From a virus (taxonomy: Duplodnaviria; Caudoviricetes): DNA of 64,000 bases. The translations under genes were made by a program, and so were the position numbers. Where the stretch lies: IMG/VR virus record IMGVR_UViG_2695421015_000002. The stretch is one strand, 5' to 3'. The notes under the pieces were generated by a model. It saw only the letters and a list, made by a program, of their open reading frames with translations. It was not told the origin of the DNA and did not search any database. Shown here one piece after another: positions 3,790 through 63,351 of this stretch. Positions within the stretch are counted from its first letter, which is position 1; each line of letters opens with the position of its first letter.

Positions 3790-4059
3790 CTATTTGCATT
3801 CAAGCAAAAGATCAAGCAAATTTTCGAGCCGATCCCTTCGGGTGATGGCCCTAATCCAGGCCTGCTTTCCTCCTTCGGTGACCTGTCCGTCCTCGGTCAG
3901 AAAGCCGCTACGGATCATCGCCTCGATCGTGCGGCGCTGCCACGGCTGGACCTTGATGCCGACCGCATGGCCGAGCGCTTCCACCCAGGCGAGATATGCC
4001 GGGGCGTGCTCGTCCATGACGCGGACCTGGGCCTTAGACATTCTGGGACGTCTCGGCAT
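3790..4059 (-). CDS. Phage hypothetical protein
   Basis: ORF in tightly packed operon. Confidence 0.55.
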   Translation of the reverse strand: MPRRPRMSKAQVRVMDEHAPAYLAWVEALGHAVGIKVQPWQRRTIEAMIRSGFLTEDGQVTEGGKQAWIRAITRRDRLENLLDLLLECK

Positions 4060-7180: not shown

Positions 7181-7208
7181 TTCAGTACTCCTTTTGCATT
7201 CAAGCAAA

Positions 7209-7892
7209 TCAATTGGCGCAGTAATCCAGCCAGATGGACTTATCACCCATGGTTTCGACGAAGGCCTTGTGCGCAGCCCGGTCTTCGTCGGTTACTCTCG
7301 ACGGCAGCGGGACAGGTCTCTGTCTCGCCGGAACTAATGTTTCATCCTTCTGCTCGGCAAAGAGATCGAGGGTCATGCCGAACTGGCGACCGCCTCGAAG
7401 CTCGATGTACACTTCCGTCAGCAGCTCGGCGTCGAGCAGAGCGCCGTGCTTGGTGCGTTTGCTGATGTCGATCTTGAACGCCCGGCACAGCGAATCCAGC
7501 GTGTGCCGAGAGCCAGGTCTCTGTTCCCTCGCGAGCGCCAGGCTGTCGACCACCTCGTTCTCAAGAGGCGGAAGGTTGAGCCTGTCCAGCTCGGCGTTCA
7601 GCATCCCGATGTCGAAGGACGCATTGTGGGCGACCAGCGTGGCACCTTCGATGAAGGTCAGGAACGAGTTGACCGTTCGTCTGAACGTTGGCTTCGTCTT
7701 CAGGAACTCGTTGCTGAGTCCATGGACCTTGAAGGCTTCCCGGTGAACCGGGTGCGTTGGGTTGATGTATTTGTGGTAGGTTGTCCCGGTCACCTTGAGA
7801 TCAATGATCTCGACACAGCCGATTTCGACGAAGCGATCTACCTTCCGATCGAGCCCCGTCGTCTCCGTGTCGATGATGATCTCTCGTTTCAA
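7209..7892 (-). CDS. dnaQ: DNA polymerase III epsilon subunit (DEDDh 3'-5' exonuclease)
   Basis: DTETTG, AHNASFD, HGALLDAELL, GGRQ clamp-binding-like motif and DnaQ-type C-terminus. Confidence 0.92.
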   Translation of the reverse strand: MKREIIIDTETTGLDRKVDRFVEIGCVEIIDLKVTGTTYHKYINPTHPVHREAFKVHGLSNEFLKTKPTFRRTVNSFLTFIEGATLVAHNASFDIGMLNAELDRLNLPPLENEVVDSLALAREQRPGSRHTLDSLCRAFKIDISKRTKHGALLDAELLTEVYIELRGGRQFGMTLDLFAEQKDETLVPARQRPVPLPSRVTDEDRAAHKAFVETMGDKSIWLDYCAN

Positions 7893-10581: not shown

Positions 10582-10642
10582 GTGCTCTCTCTCCTTCTCC
10601 GATTTGCATTAGCACAGCATTTGCATTCAAGCAAATACTTTC

Positions 10643-16985: not shown

Positions 16986-17758
16986 GCTGCTTCCTTTTCG
17001 AAGTGCTTGGCGCCAGTGCCGTGCGCCTCGATCGTGATGTCGGCCTTGCCGCCCGATCGATGTCCGCCGCACAGCAGGCAGTAGGCGCACTGGATCGCCT
17101 TGCCCATTTCAGCTCCTGCAGGGCAGTGGCCTTCGCCGTTGGCCTTGGCCTCGCCCTTCGGGCGGACCCGGTAGGTGCGGAAACCCCGCGCCTTCGCCAT
17201 GACGCGCTCGGCCTCGCTGTCACATGAGGCCATGCAGAACTCCGCCAGCTCCGGAACCTCTCGCCACCGATGTGTGTAGCCAGTCAGTTCGTCGACGAGC
17301 TGGAGCGCGACTTGCCAGATCTTGATCGGCACGGCGCCAGGATCGCCATAGGCGCCGATGCGGCATCGCTTGCGGGCCAGGAGCCTGCGGGCCTTGGCCG
17401 GCGTCATGTCGGGATAGATGCCGCGTTGAAGTCCGTCCCAGACCACGCGAGGTCCGTGCATGAGGGTCACGTAGCAGGAGCGCTCGATGTTCTTGAGGCG
17501 GCCTGTCTTGGGATCAGTGATGATGCGGCCCATGTGAATGCAGGTGCCGCAGATCGAAACGTCATCGCCCCTCTGGACCGCCTGCAGCGGGTTCTGATCA
17601 GCCCGCATGATGTAGATCTGGACCATCGGTCCGGTCTTGGAATTGCTGCCGCCGTCCTCCAGTCCGGTGGCAATGACAATAATCGGCTGGCCATCGATCA
17701 TTGATGGACCGCGGTACAGGACAAATCCGTTCAAAGGTCTCTCCTTGTTTGTATTCAT
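16982..17758 (-). CDS. Cys-rich phage protein, possibly Fe-S/radical-SAM-like
   Basis: NSKTG, CGTC, CYV, GDP, GYTH, CAYCLLC; ATG 17758. Confidence 0.7.
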   Translation of the reverse strand: MNTNKERPLNGFVLYRGPSMIDGQPIIVIATGLEDGGSNSKTGPMVQIYIMRADQNPLQAVQRGDDVSICGTCIHMGRIITDPKTGRLKNIERSCYVTLMHGPRVVWDGLQRGIYPDMTPAKARRLLARKRCRIGAYGDPGAVPIKIWQVALQLVDELTGYTHRWREVPELAEFCMASCDSEAERVMAKARGFRTYRVRPKGEAKANGEGHCPAGAEMGKAIQCAYCLLCGGHRSGGKADITIEAHGTGAKHFEKEAA

Positions 17759-18108
17759 GCAAACACCTGGTCGTGCTCGACCAACGCGAGTTCCGCTTCG
17801 GCGCGCTTCAGTTGGGTTGATAGGATGCGGATCTGCTTCCGCTTGCGGGCGACGAAGGAGGCGATGGCCTCCTCCTCGGTGTTGCAGGTTCACTGCTTGA
17901 TGGCTGTCAGCAGGACGAACCTGCCGGCAGCCCAAGCGCCCTTCGGTGTCCGCCGATCGACGCGCCACCAGGTGATCTCAATCCTGGGATCGGTGACGCC
18001 ATATCGGTCTGCATCGGGATCGATGCAGTAGGAGTAGCGCTTGGCCTCGCAGCGCCACAGGACATCCGTGCCGGCCGGAGCCCGCCCGAACGGATAGTGC
18101 TTCTTCAC
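17755..18108 (-). pseudogene. Phage hypothetical gene with an in-frame TGA at 17890-17892
   Basis: GTG 18108 overlaps the helicase stop; the frame continues after TGA (TCNTEEEAIASFVARKRKQIRIL...) to a stop overlapping the next ATG. Confidence 0.7.
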
Positions 18109-19679: not shown

Positions 19680-19812
19680 GGATCACCTTTCGAATTGGGA
19701 TGGATCAGGACTAGCAGTGCGTTTGCATTCAAGCAAACAAAAGGCTGGAAAAATGCAAATACGCCTGTTCCGCGTGCAAGGGCGTGAACTCGTAAATCAA
19801 TGGCGTTGGTGA

Positions 19813-26141: not shown

Positions 26142-27740
26142 TTAGGCGACACGGAGACGACGCACGGAGCCATCAACGCTCCGGACGTTCTCGTAGTGGG
26201 GCTCAGGGTCGATGGGGTTGAGCAGCATCTCGGGCTGCATCACCACCATGTCCCGTAGCGGGATGTTGTGGTTGTGCGTGGTGACGCTGACGTTGACGTT
26301 GACGGGCTGCTGCACCGGGATGCGTTCGTCGATCCAGGCTTGCTCAAACTCGCGAGCGCGAAGCTCCAAGTCGCGAGGACGGACCTGCATCATCATGCGA
26401 GCGAAGCTGTCGAACTCCTCACGCATGGCACGCTTATCGACCGCGCGTCCGTACCAGTCGTAGTCCTCATTTGCCTTCCGCCGCTCCTGCTGAGCCTTGT
26501 AGCTGCGGCTGACGCGCTTGCCCTCGTACTCGACCAGGTCCTTCTTGCGGACGTTAAGGCCGCTGCCCTCACAGACCGCGCCATTAGCGTCGAACCACTC
26601 CTGGCAAACGGAGTCGCCGTCGTGCAGACGGACGCGATGCTCCATCGTCCAGACTTCGCCAGTCTCTCGACAGTTGAACGCATAGGAGTCGACCGCTCGA
26701 CGGCTCCAGCGTTCATTGGCGCCCTTGACGAACTGGAAGGTGTACTTCTCGTAGTACCCCAGCAACTTCGGACACCAGCTGTTGATGTGGGAATATCCCA
26801 CCGTCGAGCCGCTGTAGGCGAAGTCAGGGTGGGTCTCCGAACTCCCGGCCGGCGTCTCTTCGACGCTGATCCAGACGTCACCGCCATCGACGACGAGACC
26901 GATGTCGTCGAAGTAGGGCAGCACGGTGTACCTGCCGTCGCTGTAGAGCACCTTCATCAGGCGAGCGCCGACCAAGTGTGCTCCGTTGCCGTCAGCGTCG
27001 TGACGTTCGCGCTCGGTGGTGTATCCCTCGTCTTCCAGCTGCTTCTGCATGCGCTGGACGTCGCCGTAGATGCGGCCATAGAGTTTCTTCTCCGGCCAGA
27101 TCAGGCAGCGCGACTGGATGCGGCCCTTGTTGTTGACCGTGTAGGCCAGCACCAGATCTCCAGCGCCATAGACCGCAGTCGGCCAGCAGGGCAGCTTCTC
27201 GAACTCACAGGCGTGCGAGCCGTCCATGCAGGACGACGGTCCTTCCATGTAGACCTTCGTGATTTCCTCTGGCGTCCTGGCGTAGAGCAGCTCGCCGGAC
27301 GGGTCGACCAGGGCGATCAGCTTGCGCCGCCGCGCATCGTCCATCTTCTCTTCGGTCTCATAGAACCGGCCGATGTAGCGGCCGGGCGTGAGAACCGTGA
27401 CACGGTCGATGACGCCCAGCTCATCGTTTTCGGTGAAGCAGATCATGCCGGGACGCTTGACCGGATCGAGGTGAGCGAAGTGATCCTTGATCGGCGGAAG
27501 ATCCCAGGCGGCGGGCAGCTTGATGAGTGTGCCATCGGTCAGTCTCGTGGCCTGACGCTCGCGCCAGTCACCGGCCTGACTCATGCGGCGAGGCTGAACC
27601 TTGTAGCCAAGCTGGTCGCTCAGCGTCTTGGCTACCTTCGCGGCCTCGCTACCCTTGTCGTAGGGGCCGTAATCTGGGATCGGCACGTCGACCATTTGGC
27701 CGGCATCGTCCGGCTGAAGACGCACTAGGAAGAAGGACAT
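26142..27740 (-). CDS. Large phage hypothetical protein
   Basis: GGAG RBS; SSCM, GRIYGD, PYFD motifs and Cys-rich repeats. Confidence 0.75.
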   Translation of the reverse strand: MSFFLVRLQPDDAGQMVDVPIPDYGPYDKGSEAAKVAKTLSDQLGYKVQPRRMSQAGDWRERQATRLTDGTLIKLPAAWDLPPIKDHFAHLDPVKRPGMICFTENDELGVIDRVTVLTPGRYIGRFYETEEKMDDARRRKLIALVDPSGELLYARTPEEITKVYMEGPSSCMDGSHACEFEKLPCWPTAVYGAGDLVLAYTVNNKGRIQSRCLIWPEKKLYGRIYGDVQRMQKQLEDEGYTTERERHDADGNGAHLVGARLMKVLYSDGRYTVLPYFDDIGLVVDGGDVWISVEETPAGSSETHPDFAYSGSTVGYSHINSWCPKLLGYYEKYTFQFVKGANERWSRRAVDSYAFNCRETGEVWTMEHRVRLHDGDSVCQEWFDANGAVCEGSGLNVRKKDLVEYEGKRVSRSYKAQQERRKANEDYDWYGRAVDKRAMREEFDSFARMMMQVRPRDLELRAREFEQAWIDERIPVQQPVNVNVSVTTHNHNIPLRDMVVMQPEMLLNPIDPEPHYENVRSVDGSVRRLRVA

Positions 27741-27867
27741 TCAGTTCTCCAGTTTTGCATCGATTAGCATTCAAGCAAACGCACAGACGCACGTGTGCTA
27801 CGTGGCACATAGAAAGGGCCAGCGCGTGCCGGCCCTTCCTTATGTGTCTCGATTGAGGCATTTGCAT

Positions 27868-27972
27868 TCAAGCAAACGAGCGGGCAAAGGTAAAGCCCGT
27901 TGGGTTAGGTCTATCGCGCGAATTGAAAAGTCGGAACCAGATGACGGTTCCGCAGCAATTGAGAACGATCAT
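27868..27972 (-). CDS. Small Cys-Cys peptide, copy B (34 aa)
   Basis: MIVLNCCGTVIWFRLFNSRDRPNPTGFTFARSFA; paralog of copy A. Confidence 0.6.
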   Translation of the reverse strand: MIVLNCCGTVIWFRLFNSRDRPNPTGFTFARSFA

Positions 27973-28010
27973 ATGTACTCTCTCGTTGAAATGAAATGTC
28001 CCGCGGAGCG

Positions 28011-28094
28011 TTAGCTCACAATTGAGCCAGGTCTGTCGCGAGAGTTGAACATGCGGAGCCAGGTAATGACCCCGCAGCAGTTGAGAACAATCAT
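28011..28094 (-). CDS. Small Cys-Cys peptide, copy A (27 aa)
   Basis: MIVLNCCGVITWLRMFNSRDRPGSIVS, read by hand; below the ORF-track length cutoff. Confidence 0.6.
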   Translation of the reverse strand: MIVLNCCGVITWLRMFNSRDRPGSIVS

Positions 28095-28567
28095 TTCTGA
28101 CGCCTTTATTTTTATTGTTGTTCCCCGCAGATCTGTGGGTGTGATGGTTCAAGGCAGCTCGTTCCTAGAGTTTTTGTAGCTATTGTCAGTCACCGACTGT
28201 GAGCTTCCAGACGGCTTAATTTTTCAGTCCTCCTTATCAACGTAATCGATGATGAACGATGCGAGCCCGTCAGCATGGGCCGCATCGCACACCTCGTAGA
28301 TGTCCTTGTACCGGCCGTGCCAGCGTTTGCCTGGCCATTTGGCGCGGAGCGTATCGTCATTAAGCCTGGCGTAGAGCACAGGCTTCTCGACTTGATCTTC
28401 AGAGTCCTCGGACACGGTCGACCCCAAACATCCTGATCTGCTCGCGGAGCTGAGCCGCGACGATCATTTCTTCCATCGCTGTCGTTTCGTCGATCAGCGG
28501 GACCTCGTCAGTTCGACGGGGAAATTTGCGGGTTCGTGGTTGCCTGGTTAGATCCTTGGTGATGCGA

Positions 28568-28957
28568 TCAGCGCGCCCAGAAGCGATCGCTGACCGGTGG
28601 TTTCGGTTGAATGTGCTTGGTGTACTTGCCCTTCGGAGTTTTCGGCGGACTCTGGTAGGGCCAGCCCAGCTCCTTACGCTTCATGGTGATCACCTTCCGA
28701 GCCCGGCCCGGAAGCAGCGGGACCAGCTCGGCAGATGACTTGTCCGTGTTGGTGCGCAGCACTTCCAGCTCGTTGTAGAGCCAGCACTTGCGCAACTTTG
28801 CCTTCAGCCGCTTGTGGTGGACGGCCTTCTCAGTCCGGCCAGGAAGCAGCGGCAGCAGCTTCTTGACCGATAGCGTCCGGTTGTTGCGCAGGACGTTCAG
28901 CTCGGCCTCGGTCCATCCGGGCCGCCAAGTGCGGTTTGCCGTGCTATCGTATTTCAC
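28568..28957 (-). CDS. Protein with two Myb/SANT-like HTH repeats
   Basis: WTEAELNVLR...LLPGRTEKAV and WLYNELEVLR...LLPGRARKVI. Confidence 0.6.
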   Translation of the reverse strand: MKYDSTANRTWRPGWTEAELNVLRNNRTLSVKKLLPLLPGRTEKAVHHKRLKAKLRKCWLYNELEVLRTNTDKSSAELVPLLPGRARKVITMKRKELGWPYQSPPKTPKGKYTKHIQPKPPVSDRFWAR

Positions 28958-29167
28958 GCGAATGCTCGCTTGCTGGTTACGACGAACAGCCGTTCGCTGC
29001 GCCGCATCCGGCCACGTCGCGACTTGGAGAATGGTTCGGGGTGACGCTTCCAGGTATGGCTCTCCAACAGGAAGCGGAATGCTGCGCCGATGGCGCGCTG
29101 GGCTGGCTTCGTCATGGGTGCCTCGTGAAGGAAAGGCCCGCCCTCCGTAGAGAGCGGGCCGTGGTTG

Positions 29168-29989
29168 TCAGTAGAAGCGGATGTTGCTGTTCAGCGCCCA
29201 ATAGGGAGCGGTACCGTCATCCGCCTGCACGAGCAGGGCCTTCCAGGGCTTGGTCGTGCGGGTCTTCAGCACGTTGACCTGGCGCTCGCCGTAGTTCCGG
29301 CGGTAAGCGCGGACCTTGTCGCCGGGCTTCACGACCCGGCCGTTTACGGTGACCGCACCCTCCGGCAGTGCCTCGGCCACGGTCTCGGTGATCTCGTCTT
29401 CCTCTTCAGACTCGGAGACGTGGTCGATCACTTGCGCCTGAGCAGGGATCGTGATCGGGACGATCGCGTGGAAGTCATTGTCGTCGCCGTGCTGCTCGAT
29501 GGCAGCGTCCTCGCTGGCGAATAGGTCATCGTAGACGCCGAAGTCGCGTCCCGACCTGTAGATCACCAGAAAGCGGGTCAGATCGCCGGTCTGGGCGTTC
29601 GCCACCCGCAGATCGCCGTCGAAGTCGTCGCCGTCCGTGTCGAACTGTGTGACAAGCTCGTCGCCGTCCGTGTTGGTCGAGACGACCACGACCGGATAGG
29701 CGTTCCCATCGAGCACGGCCAGGACGCGAGCGTTCGTGTGAACGACCGAGTCATCGTGCCGATCGAACACCTCGATCGCCTTGTTGAAGTCGACCGCGCC
29801 AACCGGATAGTTGGTCGCGGGAACGGCCGGGGGTTGCTCGATCGACAGCATCGTGTCAGCCGCGGCGACTGCCTCGGCCGAGGTCGCAACCTCGCCCTGA
29901 GTCGCCAGCATCTCAGCGGCACCGCCAAGATACGCGGATGCACCGGCTTCGATTACCACTCCGCCGGTCTGTCCCATCGTCGGATCCAT
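29168..29989 (-). CDS. Phage hypothetical protein (acidic)
   Basis: AGGAG RBS before ATG 29989; hairpin just after the stop. Confidence 0.7.
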   Translation of the reverse strand: MDPTMGQTGGVVIEAGASAYLGGAAEMLATQGEVATSAEAVAAADTMLSIEQPPAVPATNYPVGAVDFNKAIEVFDRHDDSVVHTNARVLAVLDGNAYPVVVVSTNTDGDELVTQFDTDGDDFDGDLRVANAQTGDLTRFLVIYRSGRDFGVYDDLFASEDAAIEQHGDDNDFHAIVPITIPAQAQVIDHVSESEEEDEITETVAEALPEGAVTVNGRVVKPGDKVRAYRRNYGERQVNVLKTRTTKPWKALLVQADDGTAPYWALNSNIRFY

Positions 29990-30092
29990 GTAGTTCTCTC
30001 CTTTTGTGGTTGCGTGCCGAGTTAAATCCCACCCCCGTTGAGGGGCGGCGCGCGGGTTACAACGGGGGTGTTGGTTTGCTGTCCGTTTGCCT

Positions 30093-30506
30093 TCAAGCAA
30101 ACGGCCAGACAGAATAAGGGCCGAAGGTTCCGTGGAAGGACACGTCGCAGAGCTTGCCTTCCTCGTCCTCGATCAGGTTCTCGTCTTCCGGATGGACGTC
30201 ATAGTCCATCAGCTTCACGACCACGCCGCGAGGCACTCGCGAGATGGTCGCCATGCCGCTTCGAAGCAGCACGATCACCATGCTGTCGGGCGTCGGCGAG
30301 TTGATGATGTCCCAGGGCGATTCCTCGTCGTTGCCTCGGAACGACTTGGGATACCGGCCATCTTCCTCGCGATAGCCGAGACGCTCGATGCCATCGAACG
30401 AGACTGCGAAGAGCAGGGGACCGCAGTCCCCATTGTAGAACCCCTTGCCGATCAGGCGGACAGGGCGACCCTCGCGGGTCTGCATCGGCTTGCTGAAATC
30501 AAGCAT
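30093..30506 (-). CDS. Phage hypothetical protein
   Basis: FSKPMQTREGRPVRLI motif common in phage proteins. Confidence 0.7.
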   Translation of the reverse strand: MLDFSKPMQTREGRPVRLIGKGFYNGDCGPLLFAVSFDGIERLGYREEDGRYPKSFRGNDEESPWDIINSPTPDSMVIVLLRSGMATISRVPRGVVVKLMDYDVHPEDENLIEDEEGKLCDVSFHGTFGPYSVWPFA

Positions 30507-30978: not shown

Positions 30979-31062
30979 GTGATGCTCTCCTTGGTCAAGG
31001 GAATAATTTGCATTTGCTCGAACTGCAAGACAAAATTTGCATTCAAGCAAAGATCGTGATAT

Positions 31063-63306: not shown

Positions 63307-63351
63307 TTGACAAAAACCCGGGTTTGTGGTTGAAGTTTGCTTGAATGCAAA
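63307..63351 (+). promoter_or_regulatory. Promoter with downstream 16-bp operator
   Basis: TTGACA at 63307; TTTGCTTGAATGCAAA at 63336-63351, just before a GGAG RBS. Confidence 0.6.

Follow-up and report, generated by a model that had tools for sequence, protein, structure and literature searches.

The stretch of viral DNA analyzed here (64,000 nucleotides (nt), hereafter the window; Caudoviricetes, IMG/VR record IMGVR_UViG_2695421015_000002) is a prophage related to Bradyrhizobium phage BDU-MI-1, and the gap between two of its minus-strand genes, encoding 67 and 532 amino acids (aa), holds a tandem pair of short open reading frames (ORFs). Both of these mini-ORFs are real and conserved, and they belong to a phage mini-gene family, as yet without a name, that ends in Arg-Asp-Arg-Pro (RDRP). 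The family most likely acts by ribosome stalling to control the genes behind it, rather than as toxins or free-standing proteins, and we read the two ORFs as putative cis-acting, ribosome-stalling regulatory leader mini-ORFs of a temperate Bradyrhizobium phage of the BDU-MI-1 group, with a probability that we put at roughly one half. We favor an arrest leader because conservation ends at the Pro, the tail behind it is indifferent, the N-terminus is dispensable and the place before one particular gene is fixed.

Coding signature and conserved core

Mini-ORF 1 (28011..28094, minus strand) encodes the 27-aa peptide MIVLNCCGVITWLRMFNSRDRPGSIVS, in which MIVLNCCGVITWLRMFNSRDRP is followed by the tail GSIVS and a stop codon, with a 22-codon core at 28094-28029. 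Mini-ORF 2 (27868..27972, minus strand) encodes the 34-aa peptide MIVLNCCGTVIWFRLFNSRDRPNPTGFTFARSFA, composed of MIVLNCCGTVIWFRLFNSRDRP (core 27972-27907), the tail NPTGFTFARSFA and a stop, and its tail extends into a copy of a phage-wide motif at 27877-27861. A weak Shine-Dalgarno-like AAGG (28103..28106, minus strand) lies 8 nt 5' of the ATG of mini-ORF 1, GAGAG precedes mini-ORF 2, and the relatives carry a purine-rich element 5' of the start. A sequence-only reading of this DNA had picked out both frames, 28094-28011 and 27972-27868, within an AT-richer insert, and these observations hold: both ORFs are present, and the insert (27868-28220, 353 nt) has 49.0% G+C compared with 62.0 and 59.4% in the flanking genes. 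In their first 22 codons the two share 17 residues, and 51 of 66 bases match; the codon differences comprise seven synonymous ones, as had been counted, and five nonsynonymous ones. The statement that neither frame appears in the ORF track is correct for mini-ORF 2, which is masked within a 94-aa TTG-started ORF (27868..28152) in the mechanical ORF list, and wrong for mini-ORF 1, which is listed as an ORF of its own (28011..28094).

The proportions of synonymous (pS) and nonsynonymous (pN) sites that differ between the two mini-ORFs are 0.59 and 0.13, respectively, as a pairwise estimate. The protein-level conservation claimed from this pair is real at the codon level, and both copies are under constraint. 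When 13 ORFs of the 22-codon type are aligned, the ORF frame has a pN/pS of 0.48, lower than in any of 300 column shuffles, and no in-frame stops, compared with 1.06 and 1.29, and with 6 and 13 stops, in the other two frames. Of the seven variable columns within the last six codons, five fall at third positions and two at first positions, where one change is nonsynonymous (Ser to Pro, codon 18) and one synonymous (Arg CGN to AGG, codon 19). A T-rich stretch in subfamily 1 retains the residues L/M-F-N-S while its bases differ (CTTTTCAATTC versus CTGTTCAACTC or ATGTTCAACTC). Judged from the alignment, this codon pattern is a signature of translation under selection for the peptide.

What is common to all types is only the C-terminal core R(-8)-x-[FYTM]-[NYTS]-[SPA]-R-D-R-P. 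The first 13 ORFs of the 22-codon type have W12, R14, N17, R19, D20, R21 and P22 as invariant residues; across the wider family R19, D20, R21 and P22 remain invariant and R14 nearly so, and W12 is replaced by Arg in the L036 type. Conservation ends exactly at the Pro, beyond which the tails are unalignable and reach a stop 1-117 codons later; in relative L021 the frame stays open for 140 codons, spanning both copies of the phage-wide motif found there and the start of the downstream gene. The distance from start to Pro is 11, 13-15, 14, 18-23 or 22 codons, and this variable N-terminal length makes a folded microprotein unlikely. The functional part would fit inside the ribosomal exit tunnel. 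The Cys-Cys pair is not conserved, being swapped for F, T, G or S in relatives, which speaks against the Cys-sensing role considered in the sequence-only reading. Among the functions listed there, an arrest leader acting through RDRP on the downstream operon is the only one that fits the comparative data, with their conserved C-terminal core and variable tails and N-termini.

Relatives, arrays and genomic linkage

A search for further copies gave a total of 28 mini-ORFs in 18 loci (the window, BDU-MI-1, 13 IMG/VR contigs and three metagenome contigs; the count leaves out L029, a near-duplicate of L027). They occur singly or as arrays of two or three, and in all loci that extend far enough they are found just upstream of a 532-aa gene homologue; L034 stops within the first motif copy, and L040, from the same contig, has the gene. 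In BDU-MI-1 the same gap holds a single ORF, MRIATFTGYIRWIRTTNPRDRP..., with 22 codons to the Pro.

The pattern scans used W-x-R-x-x-N-x-R-D-R-P back-translated to DNA patterns. The first pattern returned seven IMG/VR loci, four of them homologues (L016, L017, L019, L021) and three chance matches that were dropped (L018, L020, L022), while the metagenome scan returned nine, with four homologues (L024, L027, L028, L029) and five dropped chance matches (L023, L025, L026, L030, L031). A relaxed pattern in IMG/VR gave seven loci, comprising the four known ones, three new ones (L032, L033, L034) and no chance match. A search of IMG/VR with an alignment of the downstream protein found 64 loci, of which 13 (44-52% identity) have RDRP mini-ORFs upstream and one (L042) comes without upstream sequence. 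The host genome contains no mini-ORF copies beyond the two; its R-D-R(AGA)-P codon string has 80 matches against ~52 expected, and no additional similar ORF is among them.

In searches with the 532-aa protein alone, the viral scan returned no relatives and the genome scan only a truncated remnant in B. hipponense (L010), and among 401 genomes of the family matches were found in two, G182 and the window's own genome. The former (L012) is a paralogue in a genome from another genus of the same family, and the latter is a second copy (L013, G000:C1:3064123-3068277), a 33% identical paralogue about 0.4 Mb away from the window. Each of these paralogues has some other small ORF directly upstream.

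Three mini-ORFs are present in L036, L039 and L044, with 22, 13 (15 from an upstream GTG) and 22-23 codons to the Pro, the third measuring 18 codons from an internal ATG in L036 and L044. L037 has two, and L035 and L045 have two each, of 14 and 11 codons (for example MTRMYNARDRP). Array members have their own purine-rich element 5' of each start. Against this background, the window's tandem pair is one instance of a general habit, made distinctive by both units being of the same 22-codon type. The junctions between mini-ORFs in L036, L039, L044 and L037 take the form TGA-GAYGGAG-N4-8-start, that is, a stop, a Shine-Dalgarno-like element and the next start, which suggests that termination and reinitiation are coupled along the array. 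In the same arrays, the inner ORFs have tails rich in C and poor in G.

Peptide queries against PHROGs, NCBIfam, Pfam and a PDB sequence profile gave no match, and 13 members searched against Pfam hit no family at E up to 10. Gene callers miss the mini-ORFs: a profile search of 1.84 billion protein representatives retrieved two members, one called 'hypothetical protein' and one nameless.

These data also bear on the idea of a trans-acting microprotein with a conserved 22-residue head and a host or phage target, which we consider unlikely; candidates would include a signalling pro-peptide whose C-terminal signal varies, a small inhibitor and an exclusion factor. The purifying selection on the amino acid sequence, the start codon and purine-rich element that each ORF has for itself, and the retention of both tandem copies despite a pS of about 0.59 would all suit such a protein, and a conserved head with variable C-termini resembles pro-peptides. 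However, the part conserved in relatives is only 9-11 residues long with an N-terminus of varying length, the tails range from 1 to 117 codons and overlap the next gene in L021, and neither subfamily 2 nor the short forms have a signal-peptide-like or transmembrane segment. The two database entries carry no functional name, the family searches found no match in Pfam, NCBIfam, PHROG or PDB, and the strict linkage upstream of one gene suits a role in cis better. Nothing favors the signalling peptide or exclusion factor proposed from the sequence alone, and features of an arbitrium-type pro-peptide are not seen: most members have no signal-like N-terminus, tail length spans the whole range just given, and the neighbors are not recognized as a receptor. 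A type I toxin or membrane peptide, likewise proposed, finds no hydrophobic helix in subfamily 2 (MHIATFTGYTMWIRTTNPRDRP) or in the forms of 11-14 residues, no promoter-like site on either strand of 27400-28700 and no Rfam match.

Codon choice at the RDRP site

The proposed stall sites are the R-D-R-P codons CGC GAC AGA CCT of mini-ORF 1 (28029..28040, minus strand) and CGC GAT AGA CCT of mini-ORF 2 (27907..27918, minus strand). The Arg before the Pro is AGA in 28 of 28 mini-ORFs (26 tabulated; L034 and the first ORF of L037 by eye). The other codons of the motif drift: among the 26 tabulated ORFs, the first Arg is CGA (10), AGG (8), CGG (5), CGC (2) or CGT (1), the Asp is GAC (15) or GAT (11), and the Pro is CCA (11), CCG (10) or CCT (5), so that 16 of 26 have CCA or CCT. 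Counted over 12 long ORFs of the window, Arg is encoded least often by AGA (8 of 307 codons, 2.6%), CGA and AGG each make up 5% of Arg codons, and CCA and CCT supply 7 and 9% of Pro codons. The RDRP site is thus made of codons that the window disfavors and that we take as slow, and AGA is constrained in a way that other synonymous sites are not.

Such a frozen rare codon could point to a tRNA-directed device, in which the mini-ORFs would act as a sensor or 'sponge' of the rare tRNA-Arg(UCU), reshaping host translation or timing phage genes. Ribosome stalling or drop-off would leave the tRNA sequestered as peptidyl-tRNA, as with the bar minigenes of lambda and early AGA/AGG codons in E. coli. 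The invariance of AGA at the penultimate conserved codon while other Arg codons drift, its rarity in the window, the arrays of one to three ORFs with a Shine-Dalgarno element for each, and the lack of a tRNA-Arg gene in BDU-MI-1 and the prophage stretches scanned all agree with this idea. It also has a precedent, in that rare AGA/AGG codons near the start codon are described, in the part of PMC2490762 consulted, as inhibiting protein synthesis through tRNA sequestration in the manner of toxic minigenes. We nevertheless regard it as improbable: a pure codon effect needs neither the conserved residues -8 to -2 nor the Pro, known minigenes have 2-8 codons versus 11-23 here, and one AGA per ORF makes a small sink. 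Further, the rest of the phage shows no enrichment of the 8-mer GAYAGACC, whose remaining occurrences are not RDRP mini-ORFs.

Two further possibilities were tried and rejected. A phage tRNA reading AGA was sought in BDU-MI-1, which has tRNA-Asn, tRNA-Trp, tRNA-Met and an odd tRNA that aligns as a relative of tRNA-Glu(CUC). The odd gene (L104 14085-14161, record ~114085-114161) was given no name by ARAGORN and scores 45 bits with the Rfam tRNA model; its anticodon arm can be drawn with a 5-bp stem and 8-nt loop or a 6-bp stem and 6-nt loop, and its homologue on contig G401 is a normal tRNA-Glu(CUC). As for +1 frameshifting or hopping at a hungry AGA, GAY-A does not allow slippery re-pairing, and a conserved frame of continuation was not observed.

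RNA structure of the leader

Each mini-ORF of the window contains a hairpin, H1, at ORF nt 19-43. In mini-ORF 1 it occupies 28052..28076 (minus strand; codons 7-15) and is indicated by covariation, RNAalifold and folding; in mini-ORF 2 it occupies 27930..27954 (minus strand), is followed by ACTTTTCAAT and was flagged as terminator-like by the scan. H1 covaries: 85.7% of its cells are paired compared with 67.8% in shuffles, 16 cells changed on both sides versus 7.1, and the covariation score of 0.463 (shuffles, 0.187) was reached by none of 500 shuffles and exceeded those of all six slid registers. RNAalifold recovered H1 independently in each of the two subfamilies. Some amino acid changes track the pairing, as where a replacement of G8 by E/D is accompanied by a synonymous switch of codon 13 from CTC to CTT. 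The leader of the window as a whole folds better than shuffled sequence (z = -2.63, 1/200), and folding is less clear for the L036 array (z = -1.73, 5/100).

A second, tentative hairpin, H2, may lie behind the motif. In mini-ORF 1 it would be TGGCTCA-ATTG-TGAGCTA (28012..28029, minus strand), directly 3' of the Pro codon and with the stop in its 3' arm, and in mini-ORF 2 CGGGC-N9-GCCCG (27881..27899, minus strand), after RDRP and followed by CTCGTTTGC. In 13 of 13 cases the start of H2 falls between 5 nt 5' and 10 nt 3' of the Pro codon's end, within the footprint of a ribosome at that position. Possible hairpin alternatives of three segments were seen by eye only, in L016, L024, L027 and L028.

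The structural data favor in part a non-coding RNA or DNA element (a small RNA, a terminator or a protein-binding site) with an incidental reading frame. H1 covaries, amino acid changes at codons 7-9 and 13 partly follow base-pairing, W12 (TGG) sits in the H1 stem of subfamily 1 and in the L036 type becomes AGG, still paired, AGA shows nucleotide-level fixation, and the leader folds better than shuffles. Still, this explanation is very unlikely, as the frame-specific pN/pS and stop pattern contradict it. Third positions vary through the N-x-R-D-R-P codons, CGN and AGG exchange synonymously for Arg, L/M-F-N-S is kept while bases change, and all 28 mini-ORFs have a correctly placed start codon and an open frame. 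No Rfam family matches; a scan of 26500-29500 gave three weak hits (E 0.1 to 9.6), none over the mini-ORFs.

Proposed mechanism and its weighing

In the model that we prefer, that of an arrest leader, a ribosome would translate the short ORF, melting the internal H1 on its way, and would stall or strongly pause on the invariant ...[FY][NY][SPA]-R-D-R(AGA)-P. By analogy with the class of arrest peptides named after the motif Arg-Ala-Pro-Pro (RAPP), R-D-R would be attached to the P-site tRNA-Arg(UCU) with the A site holding Pro-tRNA, a placement that would account both for the end of conservation at Pro and for the frozen AGA codon. The parked ribosome would shield the RNA just downstream, comprising the 5' arm of H2 and the T-rich stretch, and could thereby change either read-through of the transcript into the operon of the 532-aa protein, a peptidase and rIIA or the mRNA's fate there; read-through into these genes is the most likely output. 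Both the stalling and the regulated step are inferred. Two tandem units would act as two successive checkpoints, and relatives would have one to three. A bolder version, which we hold only tentatively and regard as rather doubtful, is that R-D-R(AGA)-P is an undescribed phage arrest motif in arrays of one to three units that gauges the translation state of the host (supply of tRNA-Arg(UCU) or of rescue and elongation factors) and times transcription into the rIIA operon.

Several findings weigh against the proposal. RDRP has no occurrences in the consulted parts of PMC10987492 and PMC12992588, and the motif thus falls outside the RAPP-like motifs published there. In the search with the downstream protein, 50 of the 64 loci (24-44% identity) have no mini-ORF detectable by regular expression, none was seen by eye in L048, L053, L060, L078, L095 and L096, and the two paralogues L012 and L013 have no RDRP mini-ORF; the 532-aa gene can therefore do without the leader. 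P0002 (30 aa; 4 contigs), a first-in-array variant, is missing the 'RP' codons (…NSRD-TLHLLIPPTP), suggesting that single array units can decay.

The RNA offers further points of this kind. Of 17 ORFs of the 22-codon type, just 6 have a T-run behind H1, and H1 was for that reason rejected as a conserved terminator. H2 is as stable as shuffled sequence (mean z = -0.58, with 1 of 13 at or below 0.05) and has short T-runs, and we treat it as unproven for that lack of extra stability. The tract after RDRP has no general excess of C (mean C 16.1 vs G 14.3 of 60); an excess of C over G is confined to the L036-type arrays, and the idea of Rho acting at a Rho utilization (rut) site was dropped. Finally, two copies of the phage-wide motif and a hairpin, described below, intervene between the leader and the 532-aa gene, which may for this reason have a promoter of its own. 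If the motif marks transcript starts or repressor sites, the gene would have such a promoter and the leader would affect only read-through from upstream.

The phage-wide motif and the region before the 532-aa gene

The motif, (GT)TTGCTTGAATGCAAA, is 15-17 nt long and forms an imperfect palindrome, TTTGC-N6-GCAAA. The window has 11 copies versus 0.42 expected, 10 of them on the gene strand, and they lie in gene orientation, 15-60 nt 5' of start codons. The minus-strand copies are at 1874-1887, 3796-3809, 7196-7209, 10623-10636, 17751-17764, 19725-19738, 27767-27780, 27864-27877, 30089-30102 and 31039-31052, and the plus-strand copy is at 63335-63348. BDU-MI-1 has 27 copies and its reversed control none, and all 12 copies in the host genome (at most one mismatch) fall between 3.4669 and 3.5540 Mb.

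Copy 1 behind the leader (GTTTGCTTGAATGCAAA; 27861..27877, minus strand) and copy 2 (GTTTGCTTGAATGCTAA; 27764..27780, minus strand), the latter 23 nt 5' of the ATG of the 532-aa gene, flank a G+C-rich hairpin, GGGCCGG-CACGCG-CTGGCCC followed by TTTCTATGTG (27816..27835, minus strand), which is terminator-like by eye and absent from the list of the terminator scan. Relatives (L016, L019, L021, L024, L027, L028, L032, L033 and L035-L045) have between their motif copies a long hairpin of a sequence that differs from phage to phage, then a conserved ACCAAGGGA and a palindrome (GCCATGCC-N4-GGCATGC) that merges into copy 2; the window has instead the shorter G+C-rich hairpin with its T-run (27835-27816).

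A reading of the motif as a sigma-70 promoter was rejected, as 44 aligned sites show no fixed -10 element downstream. Some copies directly follow a TTGACA-N16/17 -10-like pair, at about +1, and the motif may be a transcript-start mark or a repressor site. More broadly, candidate roles are those of a hairpin in the 5' untranslated region, a phage promoter or a 'stoperator'-type repressor site; stoperators are reportedly repressor sites of mycobacteriophage L5.

Genomic context

The window corresponds to G000:C1:3463112-3527111 of a 9.09-Mb single-contig host genome, and its nearest public record is Bradyrhizobium phage BDU-MI-1 (KY940711, 121 kb). The minus-strand gene order is the 67-aa gene, a 483-nt gap with both mini-ORFs, the 532-aa gene, an M28-type peptidase and rIIA. 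The 67-aa gene (28224..28427, minus strand) is a homologue of a BDU-MI-1 hypothetical protein and lies upstream in most, though not all, relatives. The 532-aa gene (26142..27740, minus strand), with whose homologues the mini-ORFs are always associated, encodes a protein with no Pfam family, and the nearest language-model clusters are unnamed viral proteins. It is followed by the M28-like peptidase gene (26127-25168, minus strand; phrog_4191, E 9.7e-85) and rIIA (25129-22991, minus strand; phrog_612, E 1.6e-85).

A frame at 29950-29990 (minus strand) reads ...TTWIRRWDRP, with TGGATCCG... and GACAGACCG as in the leaders of subfamily 2. It has no ATG, GTG or TTG start, overlaps the start of a 310-aa ORF in another frame (ATG 29988) and sits behind a motif copy and a hairpin. 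The stretch may be a relic of a leader unit, or a product of chance.

Relation to known leader peptides

In the RAPP class, as set out in the part of PMC10951233 consulted, R-A-P occupies the P site and Pro-tRNA bound at the A site is unable to accept the chain. SecM carries F...WI....GIRAGP, and the RAPP-like motifs listed in the consulted portion of PMC10987492 include RDGP and RADP. Like the mini-ORFs, the RAPP-like peptides described in these sources (SecM RAGP, ApdA/ApdP RAPP, ApcA RAPG and the RQH family) are encoded by a short ORF upstream of the regulated gene, have their conservation confined to a C-terminal motif with Arg first and Pro last (the latter in what would be the A site), and combine variable N-terminal parts with an irrelevant sequence after the motif (PMC10987492, PMC10951233). 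In contrast to the listed motifs (RAPP, RAGP, RAPG, RGPP, HAPP, QAPP, RDGP, RADP ...), the mini-ORFs have RDRP in 28 of 28 cases, agreeing only in Arg -3 and Pro 0. They reach the Pro after 11-23 codons and have no secretion signal, whereas RAPP-like peptides exceed 30 residues and have a signal or transmembrane segment. The gene downstream is a phage gene with no Pfam family rather than secA, secDF or yidC, and tandem arrays and an invariant AGA are features that set the mini-ORFs apart.

TnaC, a leader peptide of ~24 residues from the tryptophanase operon, has Trp as residue 12 and needs its C-terminal Pro, and the ribosome stalled on it controls downstream transcription termination. The mini-ORFs are of about the same length, have Trp at position 12 in 13 of 28 cases and have a Pro in their C-terminal core. 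They differ in having no match to Pfam Tna_leader or NCBIfam, and their Pro precedes 1-117 sense codons, whereas the Pro of TnaC is the last sense codon, followed by the stop and a Rho-loading site. The Trp is not conserved in the wider family, a rut-like C-rich tract is not a general feature and the genes that follow are not related.

A hairpin inside the leader ORF, the pause hairpin, is typical of attenuators, and the overlap of the mini-ORF with the covarying H1 is a likeness to them; a clear alternative of terminator and antiterminator was not discerned in the mini-ORFs, where hairpins present after RDRP in 13 of 13 cases are no more stable than shuffles. The bar minigenes of lambda are very short phage ORFs whose effect comes from engaging the translation machinery, not from the encoded protein. 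The mini-ORFs resemble these, and the early AGA/AGG 'hungry' codons treated in the consulted part of PMC2490762, in being very short phage ORFs with a rare Arg codon that would work via translation rather than via a protein, but they are much longer, their peptide core is conserved, and so is the Pro that follows the rare codon. The leader of Salmonella mgtCBR contains two short ORFs, mgtM and mgtP, whose translation is thought to choose between stem-loops and so to control transcription, according to the part of PMC3641672 consulted. Two short ORFs in one leader are found here also; unlike those of mgtCBR and other attenuators, they are paralogues of each other and have no run of regulatory codons, only three scattered Arg codons.

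Meaning for phage biology

The open-access literature searched, including PMC11890864, contains no description of such a phage leader. Taken with the comparisons above, the mini-ORFs probably form a new family within the leader and arrest peptides, with a different C-terminal motif, RDRP. To our knowledge, regulatory arrest peptides have so far come mainly from bacterial operons for secretion, tryptophanase, polyamines and antibiotic resistance. The unannotated family spans a clade of Bradyrhizobium phages and prophages of about 120 kb, and it is unusual in its RDRP motif, in the invariant rare codon at the putative P site and in its natural occurrence in one, two or three copies with N-termini of 11 to 23 codons. 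This natural series of copies and lengths is a ready-made dissection of which residues matter. If the proposal is correct, the RAPP-type mechanism would extend to a new motif and to the timing of phage genes; on its bolder version, no nascent-peptide sensor family would have been described before this one in a temperate rhizobial phage.

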